Source of the DNA: a virus
Lineage: Duplodnaviria > Heunggongvirae > Uroviricota > Caudoviricetes
Length of the DNA stretch: 64,000 nucleotides
Direction: 5' to 3' (one strand)
Virus record (IMG/VR): IMGVR_UViG_3300011772_000022
Coordinates: 16,259-80,258 of that record
In this document: positions 1 to 58,422 of the stretch, in pieces
Layout of the letters: each line of letters opens with the position of its first letter
How positions within the stretch are numbered: position 1 is the stretch's first letter
Notes under the pieces: generated by a model
Databases searched by the model: none
What the model was told of the DNA's origin: nothing
The model's input: the letters and a program-made list of their open reading frames with translations, nothing else
Position numbers and translations under genes: made by a program

Positions 1-229
1 ACGCCAGATAAGATTTACCACTCGACCTTGGACCTGCAATTAGTGTGATACGTCCTTCAGGATAACCTCCGCCCATCTCACAATCCAAAGAAAGTGAACC
101 AGAAGGAATTCGTTTAAGGTTCATCGCTACGGCTTTACTCGCCACTGTCATAGTACCTTTACCGAATTTCTTGTTAATCGCCTTGATTTGTGCTGCTAAG
201 GTTAATTTTGCATCTTTTTTCTCTGCCAT
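1..229 (-). CDS. RecA/UvsX-like recombinase, N-terminal fragment (gene continues past the left edge)
   Basis: Reverse translation from the ATG at 227-229 gives MAEKKDAKLTLAAQIKAINKKFGKGTMTVASKAVAMNLKRIPSGSLSLDCEMGGGYPEGRITLIAGPRSSGKSYLA. This matches the RecA N-terminus (KQFGKG...IPTGSLSLD...G.P.GRI.EI.GPESSGKTT) through the Walker A motif. Confidence 0.7.
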   Translation of the reverse strand, partial: MAEKKDAKLTLAAQIKAINKKFGKGTMTVASKAVAMNLKRIPSGSLSLDCEMGGGYPEGRITLIAGPRSSGKSYLA

Positions 230-231
230 GT

Positions 232-447
232 TTACCAGTCCTTTCGAGCATGTAAGCTCATCATCATAAATTTTTTGCCTCGTACATGAGAAAATGTTAC
301 TTCATCTACATCATCAAGTGCAGAAGGTGGTACCTGAACCTGTGTGAGTGGTCCTCCCGGTACCTCTTGCGAATATCCTACGCAAGTATCTCCTCGCAAG
401 AATCGAGCAAAGTCATGTTGTTGTAAATAAACAGTGATAGTTGGCAT
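232..447 (-). CDS. hypothetical protein (71 aa)
   Basis: ORF with strong RBS AAGGAGGAACAAGAT before the ATG; its stop abuts the recA-like start. Confidence 0.5.
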   Translation of the reverse strand: MPTITVYLQQHDFARFLRGDTCVGYSQEVPGGPLTQVQVPPSALDDVDEVTFSHVRGKKFMMMSLHARKDW

Positions 448-531
448 ATCTTGTTCCTCCTTGTATGTGTTATATGTGTTATAACCTCTACCTTTATTAT
501 ACCCATCTCGGGGAAGATTGCAACCCCTTTT

Positions 532-777
532 TCAATATTCGTATAAACTATCTAAATAACGGTCGTATGTGCGGTATTCAAGTAGTGATTGGTCAGTACG
601 TAAAGCCACCACTGTCCGCCGTTTCAGATTTATGCAAGTCCCTCCGCTACCACACATATGACAAAAGTTACTATCTACTTCAGCGATAGCCCCGACGAAT
701 CTACAACGAAAACAAAATGGTAATAATTCATCTGGGTCAAATTCAGGTTCCTTTTTAGCAAACAATTTCTTTAACAT
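532..777 (-). CDS. hypothetical Cys-rich protein (start re-assigned to MLKKLF)
   Basis: RBS GGAGATACCGAT before the ATG at 775-777. CxxC...CxxC pattern (FCFRCRF...CHMCGSGG). The longer track start at 840 would run into the conserved repeat element. Confidence 0.45.
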   Translation of the reverse strand: MLKKLFAKKEPEFDPDELLPFCFRCRFVGAIAEVDSNFCHMCGSGGTCINLKRRTVVALRTDQSLLEYRTYDRYLDSLYEY

Positions 778-788
778 ATCGGTATCTC

Positions 789-866
789 CAATCTTTAGTT
801 TATTTCTCTTTCTTTTGTTAGTTAAGAATCTTAACCTCATACTGGTAAAGATTCTTTACCTGATAA
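789..866. repeat. conserved ~78-bp intergenic element, copy A (tandem 15-bp palindromes GTTAAGAATCTTAAC / GTAAAGATTCTTTAC)
   Basis: About 85-90% identical to 30485-30563 and 43289-43370, in the same orientation; lies between two minus-strand genes. Confidence 0.8.
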
Positions 867-945
867 CCTAATTATTGTAAGAAAGTAACTTGTGTTCCTC
901 TCTTATAAAATAGAGGCTATACCTTTACGGTTAGCCTCCTTTGTG

Positions 946-1697
946 TTACTTACAAGACCCATATTTCCATCCTAGTTCGAAATCTGAGATGATTGGGCAA
1001 GATAATTTCACTACGTTATCCATAATGTCTTTCGTTATTTCCATCATCGCAGGACCATTTTCAGGTGTAGATACGGCTAACACCTCATCGTGTACCTGTG
1101 CGATTTGACCTTGCTGATATTCTTCACCCGGCGTATTGATGCGATATTGCTCTCGCTCCATCTTAATCATTGCCATTTTGATGTAATCAGCAGACGACCC
1201 CTGTACCTCGGCATTGAAGGATTGTCGTTTTGCTCTGTTCTTTGTACCGTTATCAATACTAAAAATCTCAGTGATTCGGCGGCGACGTCCCGTAATCGTC
1301 TTCACATAACCATACTTAGAAAGGAATTTATGCGTTTGAGCGATTCGTTTTTCAATACCCGGGAAACCATTGAAGAAGTTATCGATGATTTTCTGAGTCT
1401 TAGTCATGTACGTCTTATTGATTTTACCGAATGGGTCCCTCTGTGTAGGACGTGCAAGCCAGAAATCAGGCTCCTTACCAAACCAATCGACCGCAAAGCC
1501 TCGTGTCGTCTTTCCATAGACAAGACCGAATGATACTGCTTTAGCATCTCGACGTTCTGCCTTCGTAATGTCCTTGATTTCCTTACCTGTTACGATGGAA
1601 GCATTATAGTAATGGATATCGTGACCCGCCACGAAACCTGCAATCATTGTTTCTTCTTGTGCTAAGTGAGCCGTCATACGTAATTCCATTTGACCTA
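946..1697 (-). CDS. DNA polymerase I family (family A), exon 2 (motif A tail ELRMTAHL, motif B RRDAKAVSFGLVYG, motif C QVHDEVL)
   Basis: Aligns with E. coli Pol I from IELRIMAHLS through RRSAKAINFGLIYG to QVHDELVFE. The exon start is inferred, not the ORF-track M. Confidence 0.8.
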
Positions 1698-1950
1698 CAG
1701 TTGTGTTACGGATATACCGTTTCCGTATACCCTCTTATAGTTTCCTATAAGCTCAGACTATATCTTCAGGTTTTACCTGCTCCCCGTTTCGAGTTCACTT
1801 GAACCCTACGTCTCTCGACTAGTCGTTGAACCTTCGTGTATAGGTGTCTCTCGACGACTATAGTTGCTTGGCTGCTGATTACCCTCGACTTTACGTTAGG
1901 GCTTCCCAGACAATTAGAGGAGTTTATAAAGGAGACCTAGTTGTTGGTTA
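1698..1950 (-). other. putative self-splicing group I intron interrupting polymerase motif A (boundaries approximate)
   Basis: The upstream ORF ends ..NWWMTVGDLTNN* (T7-like WVQAGID with the catalytic Asp). The downstream ORF resumes ..GQMELRMTAHL after a ~250-nt gap. Joining after the U of GAT-T and before TA-GGT (following an intron-terminal G) gives WWMTVGD-LGQ-MELR, matching DYSQIELR. ACTGTAGG is present at both junctions. Confidence 0.5.
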
Positions 1951-3481
1951 AATCTCCTACAGTCATCCACCAGTTACGCTGAAGCTCTTGGAATGCATCA
2001 CGAATCTTCCATTGGATTTCATAACCAGTATGTTCCGGAGTACCTTCGTCACATGGTTCGAACTCTTTATCTTTCTCATTGTATCTAACAGGAACAACCG
2101 TAAACATAAACGCTTTCTGGATTGCCACCTCTAAAGCATTCGGGTCATCCTTATGTTCCTCACGTAATGGGTCAACCACCTTGTCATATTCTTCAATTGT
2201 AATGAAGTCCTTGAAGATGGCGCCACTCGGTAGATTCTGAAGGTTCGGTCCAGATGACGATAGACGACCTGTAACCGTACCTGTTTGATGGAAGGAGCCA
2301 TGTACCCGACCATCAATATCGATTGCCTTGATGATTCCTTTTACGTAAGTAGATTCAGTCTTTTTCAGTTTACGATATTTCAAGATTAATTCGATAAGTT
2401 CTAAGCCTTCCATTGTCAGGTCAGCCAGTGTTCGTTCTTCCGCAGCTTCTCGACCCATTTTCAATAACTCTTTTAGTGTAGCAGCATCAACCTTAACTGC
2501 CCCCTTGTCCGTCTTCGCAATGATAGGAAGTTTCTTCTCGGCATGTAGTACCTCTGCTAATTGTGGTCCACTTCCAATAGAGAATTCGTGTCCGGCTAAA
2601 GCGAAGATTTGTTTCTCAAGGATATCCATTTCTTTTAAGCAGCGGGCACCGATTGCTTCCAGTACCTCTTGGTTAACAGGCATACCACGTCGTTCTATCC
2701 CTTGAAGTACCCCAACGAACGGCATCTCCACTCCGAATAGAACATCAATAAGTTTCTGCTTTTGTAACAACGGATAGTATTTGATGAACAGTTTAGCAGT
2801 CGCCACAATATCCATCAGTGCGTACGGTAAGGTTAATGTAGCTGAAGCCTCATGGAACCGAAGTTTCTTCCCGAGAATCTTATCGAGCTTATTCATATCC
2901 ATCCCAAGGTCTTCTTTCGCCACGTACTTCAAACCGAAACGTTGACGTTCTTCTTTTACGAGCCATGCCATTACCTGTGTATCAGCACAGGATGCTCTTT
3001 TTGGTAGCTCTTCAATATGTTTCGCCATTGCTTCTTTCGTTTCCGGAGCCACCCATTTCGGTACACATAATTTCGGTCGTAAATCAATACCAACATTCAA
3101 GAAGATATCAGCATCATATTTCAGGTTGTGGGCAATTATCATCTTGTCGAAGTCCAAGAAGAATTCCTTCAGTGCCTCTACAACCATTTTGCGATTTAAG
3201 TATCCAGTCGTTCCCACAACCTTCTCTTGGTCAAGGTGGTACATCGTTGGAATGTACGCCGCATATTCTAGTTTCGTAATGTCATCGTCGATAATACCAA
3301 TACCGATACCACAAATTTCTGCTTTTAAGAATGATAGGTCAGTAGTCTCTAAATCGTACACAATATATTTTGCTTTCTTCAGCCGTGCTAATAACCTTTC
3401 TAATTGCATATGATACACAAGGATATTCTCAGCGTAATCAGGTAATTCTCTTACAGGTCTCTCCAATACTGGTGCTCCCAT
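1951..3481 (-). CDS. DNA polymerase I family, exon 1 (3'-5' exonuclease motifs YDLETTDL, HNLKYD, YALMD; thumb/fingers ..TGRLSSSGPNLQNLP)
   Basis: Conserved Exo I-III and polymerase motifs. Start set to MGAPVLE (ATG 3479-3481) behind RBS AAGAGGAGGAAACGGAA. Confidence 0.8.
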
Positions 3482-3575
3482 TTCCGTTTCCTCCTCTTTA
3501 AGTGAAAAGAAAGTACGTTCAGGTGTTGCGACCATGACGTACTTTCTTATAAGTGTTAAGTTTTAGTGTGCTAGA

Positions 3576-4511
3576 TTACATGAAACGGATTGGTGTTTCT
3601 CCACCAGTATCAGCAGGGTGTCCATCAAAAGGATTTTGTTGTTGCCCACCTTGTTGACCTTGGTTTGGATTGTAACCTTGGTTCGGATTATAATATGGTT
3701 CACCTTGGTTTTGACCGTAGCCTTGACCTTGTGGATTCCCATAACCCTGCCCCTGAGGTTGACCTTGCGGTTGTCCATAACCTTGCGGTTGGTAACCCTG
3801 TGGCTGATATCCTTGTTGACCATATCCTTGCGGTTGACCACCATAACCTTGTGGTTGACCGTATCCTTGTTGGTAACCACCTTGTTGCTGCTGATTTTGT
3901 TGATTAGGGTTTCGACCTGCTAAAATGTCAGCTAAGTAGCCCGGCTCTTTCGGAGCAATTTGCTTAAACATTTGTTGACGAATCGTTTCAAGCTCTTCAA
4001 CCGTAGGAAGTTTAAGAGTTGCAGTTACGTCCTCTAATGGGACAGGAATGAATGACCATTGAGTCTGTGAGTCACGACCTGTCTTTGTTACTTCCCATGC
4101 ATGATTCAATAAACCACGTTTGCTTTGTTGTGCTTGTAGCGCTTTCAGTGCCTTGATACCAAGTTTCACAATCTTCACCGCATTTTGGCGAGTATGTTTT
4201 TGGTTATCACGTCTAGAAACCCACTCTTCATAACGAGTGTCGATTGCTAAGTAAGCACCTGAAAATGATGGTTTATTACCAGTCGCACATAATGGGCAAT
4301 CCGGTTGTTGTGAGCATGTAAAGTAACGTTTCTGTGGTTTCAGGTAATGTTGGTAGTAGTTAACAGGTTTATCAGTTAAGAATACCAACGTTGCTTCCTC
4401 GTTTTCACCTAAAATGAAATCCGGGATGTAATTACCATTTTGCTCATCTAACTCCTTAGAGCGTTTTTCCACCGCATCGTAACCTTCAGACATCCATGAT
4501 AAATTTGACAT
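3576..4511 (-). CDS. putative ssDNA-binding/DNA-binding protein with Zn-finger ([10 protein letters not shown]) and Q/G/Y-rich disordered C-terminal tail
   Basis: Start MSNLSW behind RBS AAGAGGAGGAAATTTATT. The C-terminal ~90 aa are [14 protein letters not shown]-type repeats, reminiscent of the flexible tails of bacterial SSBs. The SSB assignment is tentative. Confidence 0.4.
3600..3840. repeat. degenerate tandem nucleotide repeats (ccttg(c)ggttg / ccataacc units) encoding the Q/G/Y-rich tail
   Basis: Visible periodicity in the DNA. It generates spurious ORFs on all other frames (3563..3880, 3590..3907, 3618..3923). Confidence 0.6.
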
Positions 4512-4617
4512 AATAAATTTCCTCCTCTTAGTTCGCTCTGTACTCGACAGGCTTTTCCCTTTTAGTTTTCTAAGTATCTCTCTAGTTGTACGCTCTGCCA
4601 TCGGCAGGCAATTTTCG

Positions 4618-4866
4618 TTATTCTGCGTTTACTACCGACAGAATCTTACCGTCTCGACCGTTTTTCACGTTAGACAGTTTCTTCAGTGAAACCATTTGCT
4701 CTCCTACTTCAGCATCGATAATTTTTCGTGCTTGTTGAAGTGCCTCTGCTACATCTTCACCTTCTTGTAACTCTAATTCTACTTCTGCTTCGATTTTCGC
4801 TGATTCATAGTTCCCCATGTTAACAGTGAATCCGCCTCGAAGTGATACTGATTTGACTTTTGCCAT
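4618..4866 (-). CDS. hypothetical protein (82 aa)
   Basis: RBS GTAGGAGGAAATGAC before the ATG; acidic coiled-coil-like. Confidence 0.5.
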
Positions 4867-5078
4867 GTCATTTCCTCCTACATCATCTTAGTTTCCTACG
4901 GGTGTTTGCTTCACCCTCAGAGGTACGGAATTTGAATCACACGTTCTATATCATCACACAATCACACATTTGGAGGTTCCGTACCCCTGAGCAGGAAGCA
5001 AAATGCTTTCCTACCCATCACACAACTTTTGGAGTTATTGAGTTTTATCATGGTAGAAAGAGAATGGCTAGTTCCCTT

Positions 5079-5168
5079 CCTCTCAGAACACCGAGGTTAT
5101 CAAAGGGGGTTATAACGAAAGGAATCAGTTGGTAAACGTTTCGTTATCCTCGATGTTCTGAGAGGAAG
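5079..5168. other. long imperfect inverted repeat (21-bp outer stem, 9-bp inner stem) in a 365-bp non-coding gap
   Basis: cttcctctcagaacaccgagg ... cctcgatgttctgagaggaag enclosing ataacgaaa ... tttcgttat. A second 16-bp pairing joins 4914-4930 to 4978-4994. Confidence 0.5.
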
Positions 5169-5232
5169 AGGGGAATTATTTCGTTCCCGTTCTTTCCCTT
5201 GCCTTTATATTACCTTACCGTAAGCAACTACC

Positions 5233-5457
5233 CTAATTGCTTTTTAAAACCTTTTCTCTTACATATTCGTTCTCAATCATTCGCTTTAATCTAAAAACGT
5301 CGATGATTACGATAATTCCGAAGGTACAGATACAAAGTAACCAGTACCAGAATAAGTAGTGAACCTTTTCTGTAATGTAAATCCTGTGTGCTCCTAATCC
5401 CCCGAGAAAGAGCCATAGTACAAATGCCATCCCAAACGACTTCTGCTCCGTTTTCAT
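5233..5457 (-). CDS. TM2-domain small membrane protein
   Basis: LFLGGLGAHRIY motif between two hydrophobic helices; RBS GGGAGAGGAACAAA. Confidence 0.5.
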   Translation of the reverse strand: MKTEQKSFGMAFVLWLFLGGLGAHRIYITEKVHYLFWYWLLCICTFGIIVIIDVFRLKRMIENEYVREKVLKSN

Positions 5458-5478
5458 TTTGTTCCTCTCCCTATAAGT

Positions 5479-5694
5479 TTATTCCGGGTTTCGAGCAATT
5501 GCGGCGTTTGCCCACATCATTGCTTCCTCAAGTTTCGTTTTAGCAAGTGATAACTCTCTTGAGGGTGGACATAGTGAATCTAGTGTCTGTGCTAAGAATT
5601 GGCATTTATTTCTTACCAATTCATGTGATTGTGCCTTATTTCCAGTTGGTGCATGATAAGCGAAGTTATTTTCATTTGACCCGATTGCCGCCAT
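5479..5694 (-). CDS. hypothetical protein (71 aa)
   Basis: RBS AAAGGGAGAGAAGCAAA before the ATG. Confidence 0.45.
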   Translation of the reverse strand: MAAIGSNENNFAYHAPTGNKAQSHELVRNKCQFLAQTLDSLCPPSRELSLAKTKLEEAMMWANAAIARNPE

Positions 5695-5748
5695 TTTGCT
5701 TCTCTCCCTTTGTTCTTATTTATAGTATATCCGGTGTGTACTAACTAG

Positions 5749-6060
5749 TTAACCGTTATTTTCAGCTTCTTCAAATTTTTCTGTTGCCTCTTCAAAAGCC
5801 TTGAACACCGCTTCTTTAAAACCATCAGGAATTGGTAACCCTTGTTTTAAATCGTAAGCATCCACTGTTCGTTTAATGGCTTTGATTTGGTCAGTTGAGT
5901 ATAATCGTCTTCCAGATTGCGCTCGATATGTTGCAGCAGGGATGATTCCGAGTCTTTCCCATTTGCGAATCGTTTGCCCTTGACGTTCTAGCTTATTAGC
6001 CAGTTCTCCGATAGTATGCAATTCGATGTCTTTACCACCTATAGTGTAGATTTTGCCCAT
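5749..6060 (-). CDS. MerR-family helix-turn-helix DNA-binding protein (start re-assigned to MGKIYTIG)
   Basis: YTIGELANKLERQGQTIRKWERLGIIP is a MerR-type HTH; RBS AAAGGAGGAAAGAAC before ATG 6058-6060. Confidence 0.55.
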   Translation of the reverse strand: MGKIYTIGGKDIELHTIGELANKLERQGQTIRKWERLGIIPAATYRAQSGRRLYSTDQIKAIKRTVDAYDLKQGLPIPDGFKEAVFKAFEEATEKFEEAENNG

Positions 6061-6098
6061 GTTCTTTCCTCCTTTCATGCCCTGCCCGAACGACATCA

Positions 6099-6623: not shown

Positions 6624-6728
6624 AATTTGTCTCCTCCTATATTATAAGTATATCTGCAACATCTATTACTTATACATATTATAACAGATGTTTCTCGAAC
6701 TATACAACGTTTTCTTTTTCCATTGCTG

Positions 6729-6998
6729 CTACTTTTCGGATGTCATTTTTTCGTATGTTTCAACCACATCAGTTACATCCATCCATCGGATAGCACAATG
6801 TAATAACTCTTCTGGCATTTTTTCTACCTTGAATACTGCTACATCGATATGAGGTTCTCCTTCTAGGCTTAAAAATGTGATACGTTTTTTGTCTGTTAAT
6901 CCGGCTTCATCTAGAAGTTTTTCTACTGTTCCTGCTCCAACGTTAGCCGCCTTAGCCATGTTATCGATGAAGTATCTTGTATTAATCGTTACGTACAT
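6729..6998 (-). CDS. hypothetical protein (89 aa)
   Basis: RBS AGGAGGGACAGGAA before the ATG. Confidence 0.5.
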   Translation of the reverse strand: MYVTINTRYFIDNMAKAANVGAGTVEKLLDEAGLTDKKRITFLSLEGEPHIDVAVFKVEKMPEELLHCAIRWMDVTDVVETYEKMTSEK

Positions 6999-10918: not shown

Positions 10919-11161
10919 TTATAGGTAGTAAGTTTCATCGACTGTATCATCGACAATCTGTTTTAGAATAACCAGTATTGTGTGGTCACTCTTATGAATA
11001 TGAGAAGCCGTATATTCTACTGCTTCATCTCGTACCCGGAATACCTGAGCAGCATCCAGAGCCTCAACCTGCTTTGCCGTCTTCTTGTCACGCTTTAAAA
11101 TACGACCACTCTCCGTAATAAATACAACATCTAATTCTACGATTTCATCAAACCATCCCAT
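10919..11161 (-). CDS. hypothetical protein (start re-assigned to MGWFDEI; TAATG overlap with the primase stop)
   Basis: The start codon overlaps the upstream stop by 1 nt. Confidence 0.4.
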   Translation of the reverse strand: MGWFDEIVELDVVFITESGRILKRDKKTAKQVEALDAAQVFRVRDEAVEYTASHIHKSDHTILVILKQIVDDTVDETYYL

Positions 11162-12231
11162 TATAAAATCCCATCCTTTCGTACTCTTTGTAATAAATGT
11201 GCTACCTGTTCTGGTGTGCATCCACCTAAGTCCTTATTACCATATGAATCAAATGTCCATATCTTGTTCTTTCTTCGTTGTAATTCTTCTCGTAAGAATT
11301 CTGTTCCTGTTGCTCCCGCCTCATCATTGTCGAGACCGAGTATTACATTTTCATACTGAGCAATCTTATCGACGTGCTCCCGAGAAGGTTTAGCTCCCAT
11401 AATAGCTCCAATGTCTATCTTGTCTTGAATGTTATGCATGTAAGCATATGGTACATCCATTGGTGATTCAATTACTAAAATGGTGTCCTTATTGTAAGGG
11501 TCCCATTTGTCTTCGTTGAATACGACATCACCTTTTGGGAAGTCGAGCATCATCTTCCATCCCGGATTCGGGAACATTTCGTCCGGAACACCTACACCAT
11601 ATCGGATAAAGTCATCATCTCGTGTTGCTCTTGAGATAACACCCATTAATCCTTTCTTACCATTGAACACTGGGATTACCGTTCGTTGTGACCGTTCGCA
11701 GTATCCAATTTGGAATACGTCCCGAACCATCTCGACCGATAATACCATTTGCCCATCTCTTCGAAGTGCCTGCGGGTGTAACGCTTTTAAATATTCATCC
11801 AGTACCGCCATGTCATACGTATTGGAATCAGAAATCTCACCCATTAATACCTTCAAGTCGATGGATAGTGCATCTAAGTGGCTCTCTGATTCATCCTCAG
11901 GAAGTAGGTCATGTTCTTCTAACCAAGCATACGCTTCTATGTCATTGACCATTCGACCTGTATTCCGAGATAAGAATTTCGCCGTCAGTTGTTCGAGTGT
12001 AAACCCGCCACATACATAACAGTTGGATGTTCCTGCCGGAGTCCATTGTGACTTTCTTCTTTCCCATATTGCCTTTTCTAAAATCCCGAAGGAACGTTTA
12101 CGGTCACCATTGCCATGTTTACCTTCAAAGTCCGGGCAATGCGCCATTACGTTATCATTTCTTGCTTGTTTGATTCCCTCTACACCGAAGTAGGAAAGAA
12201 ATTTCCATGCATCGAATGCCATTATAATCAC
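11161..12231 (-). CDS. DNA primase (DnaG-like: zinc-binding plus TOPRIM domains)
   Basis: HCPDFEGKHG...CYVCGG zinc finger; TOPRIM ESPMD ... LGLDNDEAG. Confidence 0.8.
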   Translation of the reverse strand: MIIMAFDAWKFLSYFGVEGIKQARNDNVMAHCPDFEGKHGNGDRKRSFGILEKAIWERRKSQWTPAGTSNCYVCGGFTLEQLTAKFLSRNTGRMVNDIEAYAWLEEHDLLPEDESESHLDALSIDLKVLMGEISDSNTYDMAVLDEYLKALHPQALRRDGQMVLSVEMVRDVFQIGYCERSQRTVIPVFNGKKGLMGVISRATRDDDFIRYGVGVPDEMFPNPGWKMMLDFPKGDVVFNEDKWDPYNKDTILVIESPMDVPYAYMHNIQDKIDIGAIMGAKPSREHVDKIAQYENVILGLDNDEAGATGTEFLREELQRRKNKIWTFDSYGNKDLGGCTPEQVAHLLQRVRKDGIL

Positions 12232-14905: not shown

Positions 14906-16249
14906 CTAAGAAAAGATGATTGACCCACTGTCATCGTCCTCCGGCTCATCCATAATAATGTCCTCTGCCAGTCGTCCGAAGTTTTTCGTATTTTCAAAGT
15001 CCCAATGAATAACAACGTTCGGCGTATTACCGTCACGAACAAGCATCAGGTTAATTCCCATTAAGTTCATCGCTCTCATCTCTTCATCACGGAATGGCTC
15101 AATAACCACATCCGAATCCTGTGCAAATGATTGTGCGAATGAGATTGTCGATTGGTCATTCGCTTTACCAACCTTACCAGTCTTCGCCGATAGCTGAGAA
15201 GATTGAATGATTGGTTTACCAGTCTTACGAGCAACACGTTTTAGTTTACGAGTAATGTTTGTAATCTTCTCCCACATTGCCGTTCCACCTTCTTCATCAT
15301 CTAAAAGGTAAGAACCGTCCACGATAACAAGGTCTGGATTGTATTCCTCAATCTTCGCCTGTACCGCTGATACACCATATCCATGTGAATCATCACCAGA
15401 GATAATGAAGTCACCAATGTCTTCATCTTTTAATGCATCCAGTCCGGCAAAGTATTCTTCCTTGTGTGTATCAGAAAGCATACCTTCCTTGTAATGCGTT
15501 GCATTCATCATGAAGTACAGAACATCGGCACGGGTTGCGATTTCATTGTTACCCATCTCTCGGGTAATGAATAAGACACGGAACCCTTGCTTGATTGCAT
15601 AGTTCGAAATTAGTACCTCAAGATACGTTTTACCTGTTTTCGGCATGGCAACAATGGAAATTAATTGCCCATCTTGAATTCCGCCCGTTGCTTTATCGAT
15701 TGGCTCAATACCTGCATAAGAGATACCAATAAGACCAAGACCATCTGCACGTTTGTTATATGCTTCTTTACGCTCTTCAACCTCCGTATTCCAGTGAAGG
15801 TCTTTTGCCACGTTTACTTCAGTTTGGATTTGTGACATCATACGAGTCAGAAGTTTTTCAGTTCCTTCCTCATCTTCCTTCTTCAGCAGCTCAACCGCCT
15901 GCATAATACCATCCGTCAGTTTCTCACGTTTACGTTTACGACGAACCTCTTTCATCCAATACGAAAGTGGCTCCACCGTGTCCGTTAATTTGAATCCCGG
16001 GAAGTATTGGTTAATGATTTCTAAAGATGCCGTCTTCTTATGTTCGTCATAATGTTCGAACAGGAAATGTGCCATCTGCTCTGCCACGGAACCGTCCTTG
16101 AAGAATACGTATCGGTATCCTCCCTCTTGTCGCTTCTCACGTTTTAGAATCTTGTTCTTCGTAAGCTCTCCTATTGCATTACCTCGGATTGCCTCCTTCA
16201 GGAGTTCCATCTCTTCACTCAGCCGTCTTTCTTCCATCATCTTGCTCAC
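14906..16249 (-). CDS. replicative DNA helicase (DnaB family)
   Basis: RecA-like core with Walker A AMPKTGKT, the FITREM motif, and an N-terminal DnaB-like domain. Confidence 0.8.
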   Translation of the reverse strand: MSKMMEERRLSEEMELLKEAIRGNAIGELTKNKILKREKRQEGGYRYVFFKDGSVAEQMAHFLFEHYDEHKKTASLEIINQYFPGFKLTDTVEPLSYWMKEVRRKRKREKLTDGIMQAVELLKKEDEEGTEKLLTRMMSQIQTEVNVAKDLHWNTEVEERKEAYNKRADGLGLIGISYAGIEPIDKATGGIQDGQLISIVAMPKTGKTYLEVLISNYAIKQGFRVLFITREMGNNEIATRADVLYFMMNATHYKEGMLSDTHKEEYFAGLDALKDEDIGDFIISGDDSHGYGVSAVQAKIEEYNPDLVIVDGSYLLDDEEGGTAMWEKITNITRKLKRVARKTGKPIIQSSQLSAKTGKVGKANDQSTISFAQSFAQDSDVVIEPFRDEEMRAMNLMGINLMLVRDGNTPNVVIHWDFENTKNFGRLAEDIIMDEPEDDDSGSIIFS

Positions 16250-16656: not shown

Positions 16657-17358
16657 TTAAACCCCTCCATATTGTTCTCGTATTCTTCTTGCTTCCTGTA
16701 TTTTACGCCAATCCGGAAATGAGGATTGGTCCTCAAAATATAGTTTAATCGTGTTGCCTTCAATTAAAGATGCAACGGATACACCATACGTTTGTGATAA
16801 CATCGTAAGGGAAGCATTTGTCGTAAAGATTGTGGGTAGTAATCGATTGGTACGGTAGCGAATCAGTTCATCAAATACAGATGGAGCTAGTTCGCTGCGC
16901 TCTGATTGGAACCCTTTACCTACATCATCGACAACTAAAAAATCGCTATTCTTCACTCGTTTATCGTACAGGTCTGCTTTGCCGGAATCATACCATGCTC
17001 CTGCATAGAGATTAATGATTCCTGCAAGGTTTGCGAATTGCGTTCGGAATCCCTGCCTGATAGCAGCCTTTTGGACCGATACGGCAAGGTGGGTTTTGCC
17101 CACCCCGTTCATACCGTATAAAAATATTCCAGTACCTTCTTTACGATGGGTACGGATTCTAGCCGCATAATCGACCAGAGTTTGTGCCGTTTCAAAACGT
17201 TTGGGAATGATTACTCCACTATTATCTCGTATAGGGAAAGTTCGAAAATCGGCGGGATAGTATTTTTCTAATATGCCATGTCTTCTTTGTGTTTTAGGTT
17301 CCAAAGGACCGAAGACGTCACTCCCAATTAAAGTTTCCAGTTCCGTCATTGCCATCAT
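16657..17358 (-). CDS. helicase loader, DnaC/IstB-like AAA+ ATPase
   Basis: GMNGVGKTHLAVSV Walker A; FLVVDDVG Walker B. Confidence 0.7.
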   Translation of the reverse strand: MMAMTELETLIGSDVFGPLEPKTQRRHGILEKYYPADFRTFPIRDNSGVIIPKRFETAQTLVDYAARIRTHRKEGTGIFLYGMNGVGKTHLAVSVQKAAIRQGFRTQFANLAGIINLYAGAWYDSGKADLYDKRVKNSDFLVVDDVGKGFQSERSELAPSVFDELIRYRTNRLLPTIFTTNASLTMLSQTYGVSVASLIEGNTIKLYFEDQSSFPDWRKIQEARRIREQYGGV

Positions 17359-18364
17359 TCTTTTTCACCTCTGGTTTGTACTCTCTCGCACTCGATTTCT
17401 TTTGTTTTGCCGCTGAAGGATTCAGCATTTGAGGGATTATCGTGTTTCTATAAGCAAAGAAAACACCGAAGTTAGGGTAACCCTCTGGCAAATACGTGAG
17501 TTGTTTGTAGTTTTGTAGATAGAAGTCAATCGCATCAGCAACCTGTTCTGGCTCATATGCCGTCAGCAAGTTCTTGCATTGTCCTCTGTCCTTGTTCGTT
17601 GAAGCCGGAGATGTAATCCCCAGTTCCAATTTATACATATGTCGGAAGTAGGCAACTAGATGATTCGCATTCCATTTGCTCCGTGGGAGGTCTTGGAATC
17701 CTTTACCTCGTTTGTCCTTCTTCGTCGGTTTTTCTTCTGGTGCATATAGTTCATCTAAAACGTTCGGGATATCTTCTTCCGCTACCTCGTTTGGTTTGTC
17801 GGAAGGCATAACCACTTTAATGTTCTTTAGTCGTTCTGTGTCATCGGTAAAACTCATATCAGGTTCCGCCTCTGTCTTTTTTTCCTGTGGCGGTTCAGGT
17901 ATAGGTTCTTGATTCGGCTTTTGCTTCGGCTCCGGAGGTGGCGGTGGTGTCATACCTTCCTGTGCGACCATGTAAACAGAGGTGTGATTCTCTCTGGTGT
18001 AACCACCAAATGAACCCTTCTTGGTACAGACCACATAACCATCATCCATTGCTCGTTTGACCCCATCACTACATGCAGGTCTTGATAAACCAGTTAGCTT
18101 TTCAAATTGCGACAGGGACACCGCATCTTCTTCCTTGTAGACGGGCGCCCCTGTATCTTGGTCAATATGGCTTACCCACCCGTAAGTTTTACGGAACAAT
18201 GCCAACAAGACCTTTAATTCAGATAAACTTTTAATGTTGGGTAATGCTTCATCGAAAAACTCGTTGGGTATTGAAGTAAACCCTTTCATGTCCAACCGTG
18301 GTTTAAATCCGTTAAATTTGTTTCCCTCTTCCATACGTTTCATCCCCCATGAATATAATGTCAT
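17318..18364 (-). CDS. putative replisome organizer / replication initiation protein (N-terminal DnaD-like HTH, Pro-rich linker)
   Basis: The N-terminus resembles the phage replisome-organizer domain; PPPPPEPK linker. Sits directly upstream of the DnaC/DnaB pair. Confidence 0.45.
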   Translation of the reverse strand: MTLYSWGMKRMEEGNKFNGFKPRLDMKGFTSIPNEFFDEALPNIKSLSELKVLLALFRKTYGWVSHIDQDTGAPVYKEEDAVSLSQFEKLTGLSRPACSDGVKRAMDDGYVVCTKKGSFGGYTRENHTSVYMVAQEGMTPPPPPEPKQKPNQEPIPEPPQEKKTEAEPDMSFTDDTERLKNIKVVMPSDKPNEVAEEDIPNVLDELYAPEEKPTKKDKRGKGFQDLPRSKWNANHLVAYFRHMYKLELGITSPASTNKDRGQCKNLLTAYEPEQVADAIDFYLQNYKQLTYLPEGYPNFGVFFAYRNTIIPQMLNPSAAKQKKSSAREYKPEVKKNDGNDGTGNFNWE

Positions 18365-29958: not shown

Positions 29959-30435
29959 CTATGACGTGACTAGTAAGTAGGTGAATACGACTCCTGTAAG
30001 GACAAAGATGACAGCCTCAGATATTTTCCCTGTTCTATATGTGATAGGTGCTTTGTATTTCTTTTTACTAAATGGTGCAAGTAAGGGTACCCCTGATTTG
30101 GAGAAGTAATCCCCTAGTATATGAGAGGCGTATCCGAATATTAATCCCGCCGAAAAGGATAATGGTAATACAATTGCGGGGATTAATGCTAATGCTCCTA
30201 CGATTAATGTACACGGAATGGAATGAGTGAATCCTCGATGACCACATAATTTATTAACCAATTTGGATATCGGTTTTAATCTTCTTCCTATATAAGAATT
30301 AGGATGGTCAATGTCAGGTAATGTTGAACCTAAAATCACTCCGCCGTAAAACCCAATCGAGAATGGGGCATTTGCTACTCTCATTACTCCTTGCGCCAAG
30401 GTAACCGATGTAAGCATATGAGTTTGATACAACAT
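29959..30435 (-). CDS. YdjM/DUF457-family membrane-bound metal-dependent hydrolase
   Basis: Multi-TM with HRGFTHS and HILGD motifs; RBS AAAGGTGGGATTTTT before the ATG. Confidence 0.6.
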   Translation of the reverse strand: MLYQTHMLTSVTLAQGVMRVANAPFSIGFYGGVILGSTLPDIDHPNSYIGRRLKPISKLVNKLCGHRGFTHSIPCTLIVGALALIPAIVLPLSFSAGLIFGYASHILGDYFSKSGVPLLAPFSKKKYKAPITYRTGKISEAVIFVLTGVVFTYLLVTS

Positions 30436-30484: not shown

Positions 30485-30563
30485 GCAATCTTTAGTTTAT
30501 TTATAGCTTTATATTGTTAGTTAAAATTCTTAACCTCATGTGGTAAAGAATCTTTACCTCATT
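30485..30563. repeat. conserved ~78-bp intergenic element, copy B
   Basis: gcaatctttagtttatttatagctttatattgttagttaaaattcttaacctcatgtggtaaagaatctttacctcat; same orientation as copies A and C. Confidence 0.8.
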
Positions 30564-43288: not shown

Positions 43289-43370
43289 GCAATCTTTAGT
43301 TTATTTCTCTTTATATTGTTAGTTAAGATTCTTTACCTCATAGAAGTAAAGAATCTTTACCTGATATAAC
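43289..43370. repeat. conserved ~78-bp intergenic element, copy C (tandem palindromes GTTAAGATTCTTTAC / GTAAAGAATCTTTAC)
   Basis: gcaatctttagtttatttctctttatattgttagttaagattctttacctcatagaagtaaagaatctttacctgat. Confidence 0.8.
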
Positions 43371-53604: not shown

Positions 53605-56600
53605 TTAGTTACCTTGACGGTTTCCGTAGTTACGGATATTCTCAATTTCCATCATCTTCTTGAACTTCTCGAACAATTGTCTTGCTCCCTTATCTGTCTC
53701 AGCAGGGTCAGATAGGTTGTCTACGTGGATTTGAACCGCTCCTTGAGCAAATGTAATAGTCGTTGCTCCTCCGCCTTGTCCAGAGCCTTGTGGAGCTTCT
53801 GATACAGGTGTCGGAACAGGCATTGGGATTGCAACCTTTCTAGGAGAACTAGACCCCGCACTTAAAGCTGATTCGACAGAAGAGTCTCCTTCACTCATAC
53901 GTTTCTTCATAGCCGTAATAAAGTTGTCAGAGGAACCCATAATGCTTCGAGCAAATTGTGCCTCACTCTTAGTAAGAACCATTTCACCACCATGAAGACG
54001 AGCAACATAATCGTCCTTTGGAACTTTATAAAGACCAGTACGGTGACCCATAAGACCACCAATGAAATCTCCTGCTGCTCCGATGCCATCACCTACAGTT
54101 TTAACAACCTTAGTAACCGTTTGTACGATTGGGTTGTTCATAACGTAAGATTTAGCATCGTCCCAAGCCGATTTAATAGGAGCGAATAGGTCAGCTAAAT
54201 ACGCCTGAGCATCGGATACCATGCTATTGAACGCATCTACCGCCCATTGTTTCGTATTTTCCCAAGCCTCTTGAGCCTTTTGAACAATCCAGTCCCAGAT
54301 TGCCTGTAATAATTCTTGACCGCTAGTTACCATATAGTTCCATGCATCTGTTGCCATTGTTTTAGCAGTTTCCCACACCCAAGGTAATGCAGTACCAGTA
54401 ATCCAGTTCCACAAGTTACCTAAGAGAGTCATACCGTCAGTACAAATCCAATTCCATGCATCTGCCGCAAGTGTCTTCGCAGTTTCCCAAACCCAAGGCA
54501 TTGCCGTTCCTGTAATCCAATTCCATAAGTTTCCTAGAATTGTCATACCATCCGTGCAAATCCAGTTCCAAGCATTTGAAGCTGCCGTTTTCACCCATTC
54601 CCAAGCAGCCGCAGCCCATATAGGAAGGTTGTTCCAGAATTGACCTAACAGTGCAACACCGTCAGTACAAATCCAGTTCCACGCCGCCGAAGCTACGCTT
54701 TTTACCCATTCCCAAGCCTGACCTGCCCAGATAGGAAGGTTGTTCCAGAATTGTCCTAGTAATGCGACACCCTCTGTGGAAATCCAAGTCCAAGCATTTG
54801 AAGCAGTAGTTTTAATCCACTCCCAAGCGGTAGCCGCTCCTGCTTTAATAGAATCCCAGTTTGAGAATATCATGCTGATTGCATCCCAAGCTAAGAGCGC
54901 CCAACCTACGATAGGGATTGCTCTCATTAGACCTTTACCTACTAAGGAAAGACCCATCATAAGACCTTTACCTAACATACCTCCGGCTTTCGGTCCTAAC
55001 AGTGCGAATCCTTTTAGTAAGCTACCACCTACTTTACCTCCGGCTCCAAACATCTTACCTACACCAGAGAACATCTTACTTACAATTCCGCCACCTGCTC
55101 TCGCCGTAGTTGCGCCACCTCTAGATGCTGCACGAGTTAATCCTGCCGCTGCTCCGCCTGCTCTTACTGCACCACCCGCACCTGCACGAGTTGCCGCTCC
55201 TGCACCACCACGAACTGCTCCACCTGCTGCAACCCTAGTTCCTGCACGAGCCGCTTCTTGACGTTGGAATGAGCTAAAAGGCATCATCATTGATGTATTA
55301 CCTGCAACCCCCATACGTTGTGAACGGTTTTTAGAACCAACCACTGCTGCTTTAATACTTCTAGCCCAGTGACCTTTACGTTGACGGGAATCCGTGTAGT
55401 TCATTCCTGCATCGACGAAGTTTCTAGCATTCATGTAACGTCTACGTTGAGCCATCGTTTGCCTAGCCCCACGAGTTGCGTTACCGATACGACCCGGAAT
55501 ACCCATGATAGAAGCACCGAATCCTTTCACCTTGTTCCATGCATTAGAAGGACCACTACGTACAGAAGGAGGAATACTTCTTGTAACTGCTTGTCGAGCG
55601 CCACCCATTTTCTCACGCATCGTACGAATTGGAGAGAATAAGAAGTCACGTAAGCCACCAGTGTATCGATTCTGTCCTCGGACTCGACCGTTCGCATCTG
55701 ATAATGTGTTATGTCCACGTCTTGTACGGATACGGTTTTGCATGTTTCCATTTCGAGTAATTTGACGGTCAGGTAGATATTGGTCACCTCTCCATAAACG
55801 CTGCATGAAACCTTTGAAACCTTGGTTACGAACACGTCTAGATGATTCACCATTTCTACCTTGTCTTGCTAACGTCCCGCCTTGTCCGTAAACAATACGG
55901 CGGTTACCATTCTCATCTCGTTCAACACGAGTATTTAATCGAGTATGGAGACCTTCGTTTCTACGACGTCTTGCTCTATCATTAACATCCATCGCACGGT
56001 TATAACCACCCGCAGCACGTCTTCTATCAGCCTCAGGAACAAGTAATCTAGCAGCACCTCGACCAGTAGCTCTAGCACCACGACCGACCATGCCCATCAT
56101 TCCACCTTGACGGTAGCTATCTCGCATTCCTCGACCCATCTTACCTACGCCGCCCATTAATTTACCCATTAACTTCAATGGAGCAAGAGCAGTACGAATT
56201 GCTTTTGACCATAGGAAGATTGCGCCTCGAATTGCAAGAGCAAGACCTAATGCAACACCGAGATTTTGACCCATCGCTTTGAATCCTGTTGCGTTGTCGT
56301 CAATGCCATCGAAGAACCCAAGAGCTTTAGATAATTCTAAAAGTTTTTCTTTCACCCAACCTAGTATTTCTACCAGAGGAGAAACAAAGACTTTCAGCAT
56401 CTCGAATCCATCTTTCAGACCACCAATGAAGCCATCCCAGAACTGCTTAACGTTTTCAATAGCGTGTACAATGCTGATAAACGATTGGTCTACACCAACC
56501 ATTTGCATTTGTTGCATATTGACAACGTTCTTATTGTCGCCCTTGTCTGTACTATAGTAATCTTTTAAAGATTTCTTCAAGATTTGTGCTTTAACAATCG

Positions 56601-58422
56601 CATTAGACAGTTTACCTTCAATGCCGCCTAACGCATCATTCTGACGGAACTGCTCCTTGAATAAGAAGTCGTTGTTACCTAATAAGCCCATCGTCTTCTT
56701 CGCACGTTTCATTCCTCGGTCTACTTCATTAACCCAACCTGTTACCGCCGTTTTCATTCCTAAGAAGTCATGAGTCCAAGCGATATAAGCAAAGCCAGAT
56801 AAAGCAGATAACCAAAGCAATTTCTTACCCATCATTAATAATGGACCCATTGTTTGGCTTCGGAAGATTTGACCCATTGTACTGAATCCTCGTCCGGCGA
56901 CCTCCGCACTGTTACCTAATGCACCGAGCGTTACCGCAGCAGAAGCAATAGAACCGTACATCGACATTAATGCCCCTACGAAGATAAGAATTCCACCGAC
57001 AACCATTGTTAATGCCCCGGCTACAAGACCAGTCATTGCAACGAATTTCGTCAATTGTGGATGTTGTTGTGCAAATTTACCGATAGCTGCAAGACCATCA
57101 GCCACACCTTTTAGAACCTTATTAACCGGACCTAAAACGGATAGACCCATGATAGTCATTAAGGTTTCCTTCGCACCTTCGAGAATTTTCTGCGTACCGT
57201 AAGTGGTATTCATCATCTCTTCCATGTACTTATCGGAATACCCTTTTGAGCCTTTACCTAATTGGTCACGGAGGTTGAATGGGTCAATGCCTGATTCCTT
57301 GTACTTATCCATCATCTGAATAACAGGTAAACCTTCTACCCCGAATAAGTCAATCAGTTTTTCCTCACGAGCCTTCGTGTTACCCCATAGTTCTTTCGAC
57401 TTTGTATTGATTTTGTCGAATACCTTTAAGATGTCATCTTCTTTCTCAAGGTCGATACCCAAAGCAGCCCATAATCCTCCACGCTTAGATTCTGGTGAAG
57501 ACCCCATCGCCTGTAACATACCACGAGACATAGAGTTCATCATCATACCTGAAGCACGAGGTTGGAATTGCGTTGACATCATACCCATTAAAGTTAAGAA
57601 TGAATCTTCCCCTGTTTCCGAACGTCTTAATCCCATGTTGTCATATGCAGCACGAGTAGACTGGAAAGCACGGTTAATTCCATCGATATCAGTTGTGAAT
57701 AAATCGGCAGTTTTTGCTACTTTATCCAGTGCGGTTTTAGCGTAATCTACGTCTTTACCAGTTGTCTTCAAGTAACCGTTCAAGAATTTAACCGATTCCG
57801 CTTCGTCCATTTTTCCGCCAGATAAGAATGCCATCTCTGTAACAGGTTTTAACATTTTCATGGCTTTATTGTAGTCGTAACCTGCACGTTGGATTTCTAC
57901 CAGACCTTCAGCAACCTTTTGGTTTGTAGTAGGCATCGCCATACCGAGTTCTTGGACCTGACGAGTCGCTTCTGCTAATTGCGAATTATCTAATTGTCCT
58001 AAAAACTTAACCTCTTTCATCGTTTTCTCAAATTTTGATGCCATAGAAATCGCTTCAGTAAAAAAGCCCGTAATTGCACGACCCGCATTCATGAAGCCAA
58101 CCCCAGTCATGGAGGTAGCTACCCCTGCCATGACGACAGAGTTGAGTTCGTTCTGCAAATTACGGACTTGATATTGGAACCTCTGCATGTTACCACGCAT
58201 CTGCTCCATATTTTGATTGACACGACCAGTTGTGTTTGAAAGTATGTTATTAAAACGATTGAAAGGGGCGGCAAGAGCTGAATCCCAGTTACGGGGTACC
58301 TCTTGTGCGAATCTTCGGGAATCTTGAATTAGGCGCATTTGCTGCTGCCCTAATTGTTGAAACCCACGAACCGCATCTCCTACATCTGCATAAACGTGAA
58401 TACCATTGTTTATCAGGTTCAT
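53605..58422 (-). CDS. tail tape measure protein (1605 aa)
   Basis: Position after the chaperone pair. N-terminal coiled-coil, central hydrophobic segments, five tandem ~41-aa repeats (WEWVKTAASNAWNWICTDG..LLGQFWNNLPIWA; DNA 54255-54870) and an Arg/Gly-rich low-complexity segment (DNA 55032-56082). Confidence 0.8.
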   Translation of the reverse strand: MNLINNGIHVYADVGDAVRGFQQLGQQQMRLIQDSRRFAQEVPRNWDSALAAPFNRFNNILSNTTGRVNQNMEQMRGNMQRFQYQVRNLQNELNSVVMAGVATSMTGVGFMNAGRAITGFFTEAISMASKFEKTMKEVKFLGQLDNSQLAEATRQVQELGMAMPTTNQKVAEGLVEIQRAGYDYNKAMKMLKPVTEMAFLSGGKMDEAESVKFLNGYLKTTGKDVDYAKTALDKVAKTADLFTTDIDGINRAFQSTRAAYDNMGLRRSETGEDSFLTLMGMMSTQFQPRASGMMMNSMSRGMLQAMGSSPESKRGGLWAALGIDLEKEDDILKVFDKINTKSKELWGNTKAREEKLIDLFGVEGLPVIQMMDKYKESGIDPFNLRDQLGKGSKGYSDKYMEEMMNTTYGTQKILEGAKETLMTIMGLSVLGPVNKVLKGVADGLAAIGKFAQQHPQLTKFVAMTGLVAGALTMVVGGILIFVGALMSMYGSIASAAVTLGALGNSAEVAGRGFSTMGQIFRSQTMGPLLMMGKKLLWLSALSGFAYIAWTHDFLGMKTAVTGWVNEVDRGMKRAKKTMGLLGNNDFLFKEQFRQNDALGGIEGKLSNAIVKAQILKKSLKDYYSTDKGDNKNVVNMQQMQMVGVDQSFISIVHAIENVKQFWDGFIGGLKDGFEMLKVFVSPLVEILGWVKEKLLELSKALGFFDGIDDNATGFKAMGQNLGVALGLALAIRGAIFLWSKAIRTALAPLKLMGKLMGGVGKMGRGMRDSYRQGGMMGMVGRGARATGRGAARLLVPEADRRRAAGGYNRAMDVNDRARRRRNEGLHTRLNTRVERDENGNRRIVYGQGGTLARQGRNGESSRRVRNQGFKGFMQRLWRGDQYLPDRQITRNGNMQNRIRTRRGHNTLSDANGRVRGQNRYTGGLRDFLFSPIRTMREKMGGARQAVTRSIPPSVRSGPSNAWNKVKGFGASIMGIPGRIGNATRGARQTMAQRRRYMNARNFVDAGMNYTDSRQRKGHWARSIKAAVVGSKNRSQRMGVAGNTSMMMPFSSFQRQEAARAGTRVAAGGAVRGGAGAATRAGAGGAVRAGGAAAGLTRAASRGGATTARAGGGIVSKMFSGVGKMFGAGGKVGGSLLKGFALLGPKAGGMLGKGLMMGLSLVGKGLMRAIPIVGWALLAWDAISMIFSNWDSIKAGAATAWEWIKTTASNAWTWISTEGVALLGQFWNNLPIWAGQAWEWVKSVASAAWNWICTDGVALLGQFWNNLPIWAAAAWEWVKTAASNAWNWICTDGMTILGNLWNWITGTAMPWVWETAKTLAADAWNWICTDGMTLLGNLWNWITGTALPWVWETAKTMATDAWNYMVTSGQELLQAIWDWIVQKAQEAWENTKQWAVDAFNSMVSDAQAYLADLFAPIKSAWDDAKSYVMNNPIVQTVTKVVKTVGDGIGAAGDFIGGLMGHRTGLYKVPKDDYVARLHGGEMVLTKSEAQFARSIMGSSDNFITAMKKRMSEGDSSVESALSAGSSSPRKVAIPMPVPTPVSEAPQGSGQGGGATTITFAQGAVQIHVDNLSDPAETDKGARQLFEKFKKMMEIENIRNYGNRQGN

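Follow-up and report, generated by a model that had tools for sequence, protein, structure and literature searches.

Paired palindromes and an AT-rich tract repeated at gene boundaries of a large myovirus resemble iteron origins found inside phage initiator genes

The DNA analysed here, hereafter the window, is a stretch of 64,000 nucleotides from a virus of the Caudoviricetes (IMG/VR record IMGVR_UViG_3300011772_000022, positions 16,259 to 80,258), and nearly all of its genes are on the minus strand. Our subject is a 78-bp element repeated between genes of this phage, both halves of which are homologous to iteron arrays inside phage replication initiator genes. The copy called A (788..866, minus strand) is flanked by the second exon of a family A DNA polymerase (946..1689, minus; the C-terminal part, PF00476 9e-50) and by a gene at 532..777 (minus) for an 81-aa protein with a CxxC...CxxC pattern. 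After the polymerase stop codon there is a terminator-like hairpin (912..939, minus; -16.4 kcal/mol, z -4.3) followed by UAUUUUAU, and at the other side copy A ends in GATTGGAG, which runs into the Shine-Dalgarno sequence of 532..777, 9 nt ahead of the ATG at 777. An earlier note on this DNA, below called the sequence-only reading, had placed the element between the polymerase 3' end and a small Cys-rich gene, directly upstream of the ribosome-binding site of that gene, and both placements are confirmed. It also preferred the start at 777 over a longer open reading frame (ORF) from 840, and this is supported by the orthologue in a related phage, the metagenome contig MTEU01003794.1, where the upstream frame has a stop within the element; the long ORF is therefore not real, or not conserved.

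A group I intron (1734-1991, minus; Rfam RF00028, 80.7 bits) divides the polymerase gene into the exon ORFs 1937..3535 and 946..1689. In the related phage the same intron (L027:1859-2335, L numbers being our labels for loci) holds a 158-aa ORF for an HNH homing endonuclease, which the window intron is without. A sigma-A-type promoter with a strong -10 box lies at about 523, just downstream of the gene following copy A.

In a repeat search of the window the element appeared as a 77-nt pair with 90% identity (789-865 and 43290-43366), and a third copy, around 30486-30562, was reached through a shorter repeat family near 30507. Aligned in the coding orientation, i.e. on the minus strand, the three regions have a block of about 78 nt in common and unrelated flanks. 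A profile built from all copies gives exactly three full copies in the window (788-864, 30485-30562 and 43289-43365, all minus, E 4e-21 to 6e-19) and no partial or diverged ones, and palindromes of the type described below with at most one mismatch are confined to the same three places. A chance origin is excluded, because the 18-mer TTAACTAACAATATAAAG, allowing up to three mismatches, occurs three times where 0.14 are expected, a number that no shuffle reached. Copy B (30485..30562, minus) is upstream of a YdjM-like gene (29959..30435), and copy C (43289..43366, minus) is between two tail-fibre-like paralogues with Laminin_G_3 domains. Another one, copy E (L042:8933-9009), directly follows the major head protein gene about 260 bp past the window's right edge, and at its 3' end forms the Shine-Dalgarno sequence of the next gene. 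There are at least four copies in the window phage and at least four in the related contig. All of them are intergenic, have the same orientation as the genes and lie 11-50 nt 5' of a start codon, and in three of them the GGAG(G) at the 3' end serves as Shine-Dalgarno sequence. C and E belong to the tail and head modules, A and B to the replication and accessory modules, and the claim of the sequence-only reading that replication and structural modules share a non-coding cis element is borne out, with three near-identical copies in the window alone. One assembly contig (source sample SRR1749594) breaks exactly within copy A, as is expected at a dispersed repeat.

The copies, or cassettes, all have the same anatomy. 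Two dyad-symmetric 17-bp sites (GGTWAAGAWTCTTWAC), here named P1 and P2, have their centres 23-24 bp apart and are followed by about 35 bp of AT-rich DNA, and this polarity, from palindromes to AT-rich tract along the direction of transcription, is common to all copies. On the coding strand P1 reads GGTAAAGA-W-TCTTTACC and P2 reads GGTWAAGA-W-TCTTAACT, with a spacer of 6-7 nt between them that has TGA at its end. The AT-rich half consists of AACAAWAKAAAG, 1-4 variable nucleotides and the box AAATAAACTAAAGATTG, the latter almost invariant between copies; the 32-38 nt after P2 have 78-82% A+T against 59% in the window as a whole, and the stretch AACAAAAGAAAG...AAACTAAAG is a candidate unwinding element. 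In copy A, P1 (844..860, GGTAAAGAATCTTTACC) is a perfect 17-bp palindrome and a putative site for an initiator dimer, P2 (820..836, GGTTAAGATTCTTAACT) has a perfect core of 15 bp centred 24 bp from the centre of P1, and the AT-rich tract (788..819, minus, AACAAAAGAAAGAGAAATAAACTAAAGATTG, 78% A+T) would be the unwinding element. The two self-symmetric sites and the AT-rich tract are present in eight of eight aligned copies, by which we mean, here and in the pairing counts that follow, the copies of the window phage together with those of the related contig.

Since each site is palindromic, P1 can also pair with P2, and the element could then act as RNA. As two separate palindromes 96.9% of the cells in the alignment are paired, and as one long P1:P2 hairpin 86.2%. 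The copies differ in this respect. In A, B and D, P1 is perfect and the 19-pair long stem has 3-5 mismatches. The self-palindromes of C and E, both of which lie in the structural region, are imperfect, but their 19-bp P1:P2 stem has one mismatch (C; -24.5 kcal/mol, z -5.1) or none (E; -26.3 kcal/mol, z -5.5). The changes that set C and E apart break the self-palindromes and yet complete the long stem, with the loop going from 7 to 3 nt. It could be that this hairpin, in polycistronic minus-strand transcripts, is an RNase III site or a structure that stabilises or insulates mRNA, as in the early mRNA of phage SP82 or at the R sites of T7. Both C and E come after structural genes, E stands at the position of a relative's terminator, the host is apparently one of the Bacillales, and the RNase III sites of SP82 are conserved intercistronic hairpins, at least as they are cited in PMC4838370. 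The cassettes resemble the SP82 and T7 hairpins in being conserved, intercistronic and several per phage, with stems of about 19 bp in C and E. They differ in that A, B and D lack a good long stem, in the conserved unstructured 3' half and in having no sequence relation to them. The long hairpin moreover has no significant covariation, the observed score being reached by 115 of 500 shuffles; an apparent covariation at the centres of the three window copies was lost on inclusion of five further copies, as A/A and T/T centres exist. Hairpins between iterons are an automatic by-product of repeated palindromes, as in lambda (PMC7466680), and an RNA element would leave unexplained both the conserved 35-nt 3' half and the identity with DNA iterons that is described below. 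In Rfam 15 the group I intron is the sole match of the window at gathering score, and a permissive scan of 700-1000 gave only noise below threshold. We find an RNA-level function quite improbable for the element as such, while an RNA-hairpin role for C and E only is plausible.

The related phage MTEU01003794.1 (107.9 kb) was found in metagenome contigs with the two-palindrome pattern, and is 78-93% identical to the window phage in the regions compared. It has four copies, of which three are the orthologues of A, B and C and the fourth, D, has flanks that do not occur in the window. Identity between the two phages is 96%, 94% and 100% for the cassettes and 77%, 93% and 85% for the adjacent coding DNA. 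The few differences within the cassettes fall at the palindrome centres, in the spacer between the sites and in the variable one, from which we conclude that the element is constrained at the sequence level. At A and B the homology between the phages ends at the upstream edge of the cassette, whereas copy C is collinear. Two characters, the type of the 5' flank and the type of box 1, occur in all four combinations among the copies, which indicates recombination or gene conversion between cassettes.

At copy A the related phage has an extra gene of about 78 codons (L027:3200-3437), situated between the polymerase hairpin and the cassette; of this gene the window retains only the ribosome-binding site and a few bases at either end, so that the two phages seem to differ by a clean indel of one gene next to the cassette. 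At the locus of copy D the flanking ORFs (L029:76-984 and 1768-2382) match the N- and C-terminal parts of phrog_887 (queuine tRNA-ribosyltransferase, DpdA-like), with three small ORFs between them, and may be a split or interrupted DNA-modification gene.

Copies that recombine with each other could be nothing but a selfish or decaying repeat, i.e. fragments of an origin that were spread by illegitimate or homologous recombination and are tolerated between genes with no present function. The mosaic of characters would suit this, and so would the dispersal in one lineage only and the lack of copies in IMG/VR and in annotated phage and plasmid collections. A repeat of that kind is however hard to reconcile with cassettes that are 94-100% conserved next to genes at 77-93%, with substitutions only where they are expected to be neutral for a dimer site, with three orthologous positions that have been kept, and with a single orientation throughout. 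There are no target-site duplications and no transposon-type terminal inverted repeats at the copies either, and we regard this explanation as the most improbable one discussed here.

The other searches for relatives gave little. Positions 1-6000 had no match among phages by megablast, and blastn of the cassette at low stringency against phages and plasmids gave only chance matches, one of which, candidate H9, was inspected and rejected. In IMG/VR the two-palindrome pattern had no match, the exact 17-mer of the 3' box had 22 that were all due to chance and none of which had palindromes, and the polymerase exon led to distant matches only; no product of this exon is on record. Homologues of YdjM were tried as another route to related phages, and the three contigs obtained were bacterial chromosomes.

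The main rival to a function in replication is a portable cassette for the punctuation of transcription, comparable to the PeSL elements of T4-type phages. The P1:P2 hairpin would end or attenuate the upstream transcript, the AT-rich half would contain a weak promoter that depends on a factor (TTAACT, 16-19 nt, TAAACT) and for which P1 and P2, centred near -62 and -38, would be operators or activator sites, the 3' end would be leader and Shine-Dalgarno sequence, and recombination between copies would shuffle the neighbouring genes. PeSLs combine terminator and promoter and are found where indels begin or end (PMC2839356, PMC4122927). In common with the element they are conserved composite cassettes of about 70-80 bp with a stem-loop, repeated between genes, oriented with them, and placed at indel or mosaic boundaries of close relatives. 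The placement of all copies shortly before start codons, three of them ending in a Shine-Dalgarno sequence, is what one would expect, and so are the breaks of homology at the upstream edges of A and B, the extra gene at A in the relative, and the recombined characters. Copy A moreover stands after a terminator-like hairpin, and a related array (L045, see below) after a clear terminator, so that the downstream gene would need a promoter, and copy E takes the place of a relative's terminator.

Still, the transcription signals themselves are poor. The best sigma-A-like match, TTAACT/TAAACT, agrees in 8 of 12 positions and its spacer varies by 3 nt between the copies, and the cassette has no equivalent of the strong -10 box (TATAAT, often with TGGG before it) that intergenic promoters elsewhere in this phage have. 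With the -10 at TAAACT, transcripts would start in or at the Shine-Dalgarno sequence in A, D and E. A terminator scan found none at the cassettes, whose stems are AT-rich and have no U-tract after the hairpin, and inspection by eye found no conserved promoter of Bacteroidetes type, T4 late promoter (TATAAATA), DnaA box or IHF site in the element. The downstream genes come from different modules, and among about 45 proteins scanned in the window no phage sigma factor, RNA polymerase or dedicated regulator was detected. The cassettes also differ from PeSLs in that no canonical promoter or terminator can be recognised, in stem arms that are initiator-type iterons, in the phage group and host, and in a far smaller number of copies. 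Transcription punctuation also leaves the identity with intragenic iteron origins in 42 unrelated initiator genes unexplained, and on balance we think that it is unlikely to be what the element is for.

These initiator genes were found through the palindromes. The exact two-palindrome pattern, with 30 specified bases, matched in metagenome contigs only the related phage and two unrelated contigs. The first, L028, is GC-rich and has five palindromes (330-433) with a period of 23 nt in an AT-rich island inside a gene of the HTH_36 family, which is followed by an IstB/DnaC-like gene. The second, L032, belongs to a metagenome-assembled genome of the Crocinitomicaceae and has four palindromes (16-120) inside another HTH_36 gene, near a RecT/exonuclease module; in the two contigs together the arrays have 4-5 copies and a period of 22-23 bp. 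A scan of IMG/VR for a single palindrome gave 65 loci (L051-L115). At 40 of them there are arrays of 2-7 sites, mostly with a period of 22-24 bp, and all 40 arrays lie inside long ORFs just past a winged-helix domain and are followed by an AT-rich tract beginning with CAAYAAWA. The proteins form 13 groups with less than 60% identity; most of the carriers are HTH_36 by Pfam, and two (L069 and L098) are Phage_rep_O above the cutoff. The remaining 25 loci are single sites in unrelated ORFs, about the number expected by chance. In all, 42 unrelated initiator genes (HTH_36, Phage_rep_O) contain iteron arrays with this combination of palindrome, spacing and AT-rich continuation, and the 17-bp site GGTAAAGAWTCTTTACC is shared by the 40 viral loci, the GC-rich contig and the Bacteroidota genome. 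By analogy with ori-lambda, which is inside gene O (PMC7466680), we infer that the arrays are the iterons of the initiators that the genes encode. Cultured phages of Bacteroidota with homologous HTH_36 genes have the same layout with palindromes of their own and then an AT-rich tract, e.g. ACACAATAAAGATAGA.

The arrays are translated in different frames (giving GKESLP or VKNLY) and the cassettes of the window are non-coding, which means that the conservation is at the level of DNA. In L098 the last iteron and tract, TTTACCAACAAAAGAAACAGAAA...AAATAAC, almost equal those of copy A (TTAACTAACAAAAGAAAGAGAAATAAAC), the L098 tract starting with ACCAACAAAAGAAACAGAAA. Palindrome, period of 22-24 bp and a tract that starts with CAAYAAWA are common to the intragenic arrays and the window cassettes, and the DNA-binding domain of the L098 carrier is homologous to that of the presumed initiator of the window phage (BLASTP 4e-11; the L098 protein has 41.6 bits for PF04492). 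What differs is that the intragenic arrays have 3-7 copies, are translated and occur once per genome, whereas the cassettes are dispersed non-coding pairs. We searched the literature for the GGTAAAGAWTCTTTACC iteron sequence and for the GKESLP peptide and found nothing, so the iteron is apparently undescribed. It could be of use for the annotation of origins in phages from metagenomes, and one may ask why a DNA site stays conserved while the initiator proteins diverge.

A cognate initiator module is present in the window. The product of 17318..18364 (minus; 338 aa from the probable true start) matches phrog_678, "replication initiation O-like", at 4.8e-18 and annotated O proteins of Acinetobacter and Pasteurella phages at 3e-6 (tblastn), and is the candidate protein for binding P1 and P2. 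Homologues of the HTH_36 proteins of L028 and L032 were not detected in the window by phmmer, and it was a weak profile match that led to this O-like gene. Next to it are genes for a DnaC/IstB-like helicase loader (16657..17358, minus; PF01695 4.7e-13) and a DnaB-type replicative helicase (14906..16249, minus; PF03796 3.5e-24), and the replication block further contains a Toprim primase (11161..12231, minus; PF13155 2.8e-8), an SNF2-type helicase and the intron-split PolA. There are no internal repeats or iterons in the O-like gene, and no iteron-like array other than the cassettes was found in the window. With its extensions (L041 and L042) the window amounts to a myovirus of about 110 kb, with terminase, SPP1-type portal, N4-gp56-type capsid protein, sheath, tube and a tape measure of 1605 aa among the structural genes, and RecA-like, RNR and ThyA genes past the left edge. 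A host among the Bacillales is probable, since the closest cellular homologues of the YdjM-like gene are in Aneurinibacillus, Bacillus and Anoxybacillus and the genes have strong Shine-Dalgarno sequences.

More distant relatives have either a single intergenic array or an ordinary terminator after the capsid gene, and they give some indication that the iteron site changes when the recognition helix of the O-like protein changes, based on three data points. The recognition helix of the window protein begins with S-R-P-A (SRPACSDGVKRA). Carriers of GGTAAAG-type iterons mostly have a helix that starts with S/T-K/R-P-T, and three phages with other iterons have DKST, SRQT and SKNT. In L045, where the helix (SQPSCVDGVKRA) resembles that of the window, the place of copy B is taken by three palindromes of GGTWAAG type and an AT-rich tract, with a terminator before and a YdjM homologue after. 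In L037 the helix is SLGSIASGITKA, and three CTCTAAAATTTAGAG palindromes are followed by a cassette-like AT-rich tract and then by one more palindrome, all of this 1.3 kb upstream of the O-like gene. No dispersed copies of this palindrome were found in the 42 kb examined of the L037-type relative, so the dispersal is specific to the lineage of the window and MTEU phages. Its predicted palindrome after the capsid gene did not turn up either; at that position, the one of cassette E, there is a canonical GC-rich intrinsic terminator directly after the major capsid gene (L122:10907-10980). The L037-type palindrome has five single matches in IMG/VR, which is at chance level.

The sequence-only reading had suggested that a shared element means either a common regulatory input or a common insertion history. 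A common insertion history fits with the dispersal in this one lineage, and a common trans-acting input is likely, but the implied reading as a shared promoter or other transcriptional element is not supported, given the lack of a strong -10 box, hexamers at 8/12 with a spacer of 16-19 nt, and no coherent temporal class among the five downstream genes. The evidence points to the replication initiator as the common factor, because palindromes, spacing and AT-rich continuation match the iteron arrays inside initiator genes of many unrelated phages.

The explanation that we favour, and to which we would give an even chance, is that the 78-bp element is a compact origin module of the lambda/SPP1 type that has come to lie outside the initiator gene, has been multiplied, and is bound by the O-like initiator. 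Dimers of the latter would bind P1 and P2, the AT-rich tract next to P2 would melt, and the DnaC-like loader would then place the phage DnaB helicase at the melted tract. Copy B is probably the ancestral origin, as it is at the position of the array with three iterons in L045, and A, C, D and E would be additions peculiar to the lineage of the window and MTEU phages. Their function might be that of further origins, or of sites that, with initiator bound, halt forks, titrate the initiator or punctuate transcription, in the way suggested for oriR of SPP1. The anatomy, the sequence constraint, the homology of both halves to intragenic iteron origins, the cognate initiator module and the absence of any other iteron array from the window are directly established.

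Lambda-type origins normally occur once, inside the initiator gene. The iterons of lambda are inverted repeats of about 19 bp, and unwinding and replication in vitro need no more than two of them and the AT-rich tract next to them (PMC7466680). As in ori-lambda and its lambdoid relatives, the cassettes have dyad-symmetric repeats of 17-19 bp about two helical turns apart with an AT-rich tract directly after them on one side only, the order from iterons to AT-rich DNA follows transcription, and the same genome has a cognate O-type initiator and helicase loader. They are unlike ori-lambda in being intergenic and outside the initiator gene, with two iterons each, at least 4-5 copies per genome and another iteron sequence, and the window phage is, unlike lambda, a virulent-type myovirus of about 110 kb with a DnaB, primase and PolA of its own. 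The SPP1 initiator binds at two loci made up of repeats and an AT-rich unwinding element, oriL within gene 38 and oriR between genes of the late region, and when bound at oriR it is proposed to stall forks (PMC6316719). What the phages share is a module of repeats and AT-rich DNA that occurs at two or more loci, at least one of them intergenic, in the late region and bracketed by transcription signals, as well as a Bacillus-related host, a module of initiator, loader and DnaB, and, for the extra copy, the proposed role as a fork barrier with bound initiator (PMC6316719). SPP1 has however two copies, one of them inside gene 38, and direct repeats, while here there are 4-5 copies, none in the initiator gene, and palindromes, with no sequence similarity between the two; our phage searches gave no SPP1 match, and the initiator of the window is O-like and not a detected homologue of gp38 or its boxes.

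Several points weigh against an origin of this kind. The binding of the O-like protein to P1 and P2 and the start of replication there are inferred from sequence comparison, and so is what each copy would do. Five copies with two iterons each, all intergenic and three of them fused to a Shine-Dalgarno sequence, are no known arrangement of an origin, and the near-invariance of AAATAAACTAAAGATTG exceeds what a simple unwinding element needs. The imperfect self-palindromes of C and E, their 19-bp hairpin with 0-1 mismatches and the place of E at a relative's terminator suggest a role in transcription or at the RNA level for these two. The O-like protein has 25 bits for PF04492 (Phage_rep_O), below the Pfam gathering cutoff of 28.7, and a precomputed match to the family exists for most of its homologues; its relation to the HTH_36 set is only moderate, at 54% probability in a profile comparison. 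The L037-type relative shows no dispersed copies in the 42 kb examined, so that the test for co-variation of helix and iteron comes down to the three data points. A conventional origin could also be located in the approximately 25 kb of the genome that are outside the sequence covered.

Iterons with AT-rich origins are already known, and so is a second, intergenic copy of an origin. A module outside the initiator gene that is multiplied to at least 4-5 co-oriented cassettes with two iterons each at gene boundaries did not turn up in IMG/VR, in the annotated phage and plasmid collections or in the literature searched. In its widest form the proposal would be that a lineage of Bacillales myoviruses of about 110 kb has at least five co-oriented mini-origins with two iterons each at the boundaries of head, tail, accessory and replication genes, which double as replication start or fork control and as transcription punctuation, and that the GGTAAAGAWTCTTTACC iteron occurs in at least 13 highly diverged initiator families in phages of different phyla. 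Taken as a whole this is a tentative idea, and we would rather expect it to fail in some part than to hold. If true, it would be a direct physical coupling of replication initiation with control at gene boundaries. If the copies are active, there would be several initiator-dependent origins co-oriented with transcription, or initiator-bound barriers to forks and transcription, and the idea put forward for SPP1 oriR would be extended genome-wide. The origins of most uncultured large phages are unknown, and here a concrete candidate with a cognate initiator is at hand for a widespread group of myoviruses of about 100 kb, the capsid protein of which has more than 4,000 homologues at E <1e-20. That the cassettes mark mosaic boundaries and show recombination between copies also bears on how modules are exchanged outside the T4 group.

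Some other features of the window are worth recording. Promoters of sigma-A type with a strong -10 box, several of them after TGGG (e.g. ATGGGGTATAAT), are found on the minus strand in the intergenic gaps at about 523, 6700, 13410, 18830, 26880, 29640 and 37530. A gap of 366 nt (4866..5232), among the largest non-coding ones, holds an inverted repeat of 29 nt (5076-5104 and 5140-5168; 86% complementary, 35 nt apart) with no Rfam match at gathering score. The 341-aa protein of 3576-4601 (minus) has a weak match to SSB (phrog_14578, 2.5e-7) and a low-complexity repeat region that derives from periodic DNA repeats of 18-45 nt at 3600-3900. Within the gene of the 1605-aa tape measure (53605..58422) there are tandem repeats of 111/114 nt, 68-75% identical (54319-54853). 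The sole clear gene on the plus strand (33016-33543) encodes a free-standing HNH endonuclease (phrog_374, 3e-44) and sits amid large non-coding regions at the junction of the structural and accessory modules. In one relative (L043, ERZ15185572 NODE_390) three ORFs for LAGLIDADG endonucleases (2871-3638, 5781-6542 and 6700-7386) interrupt the DnaC-like/DnaB region, and homing elements appear to favour the replication module in this group of phages.

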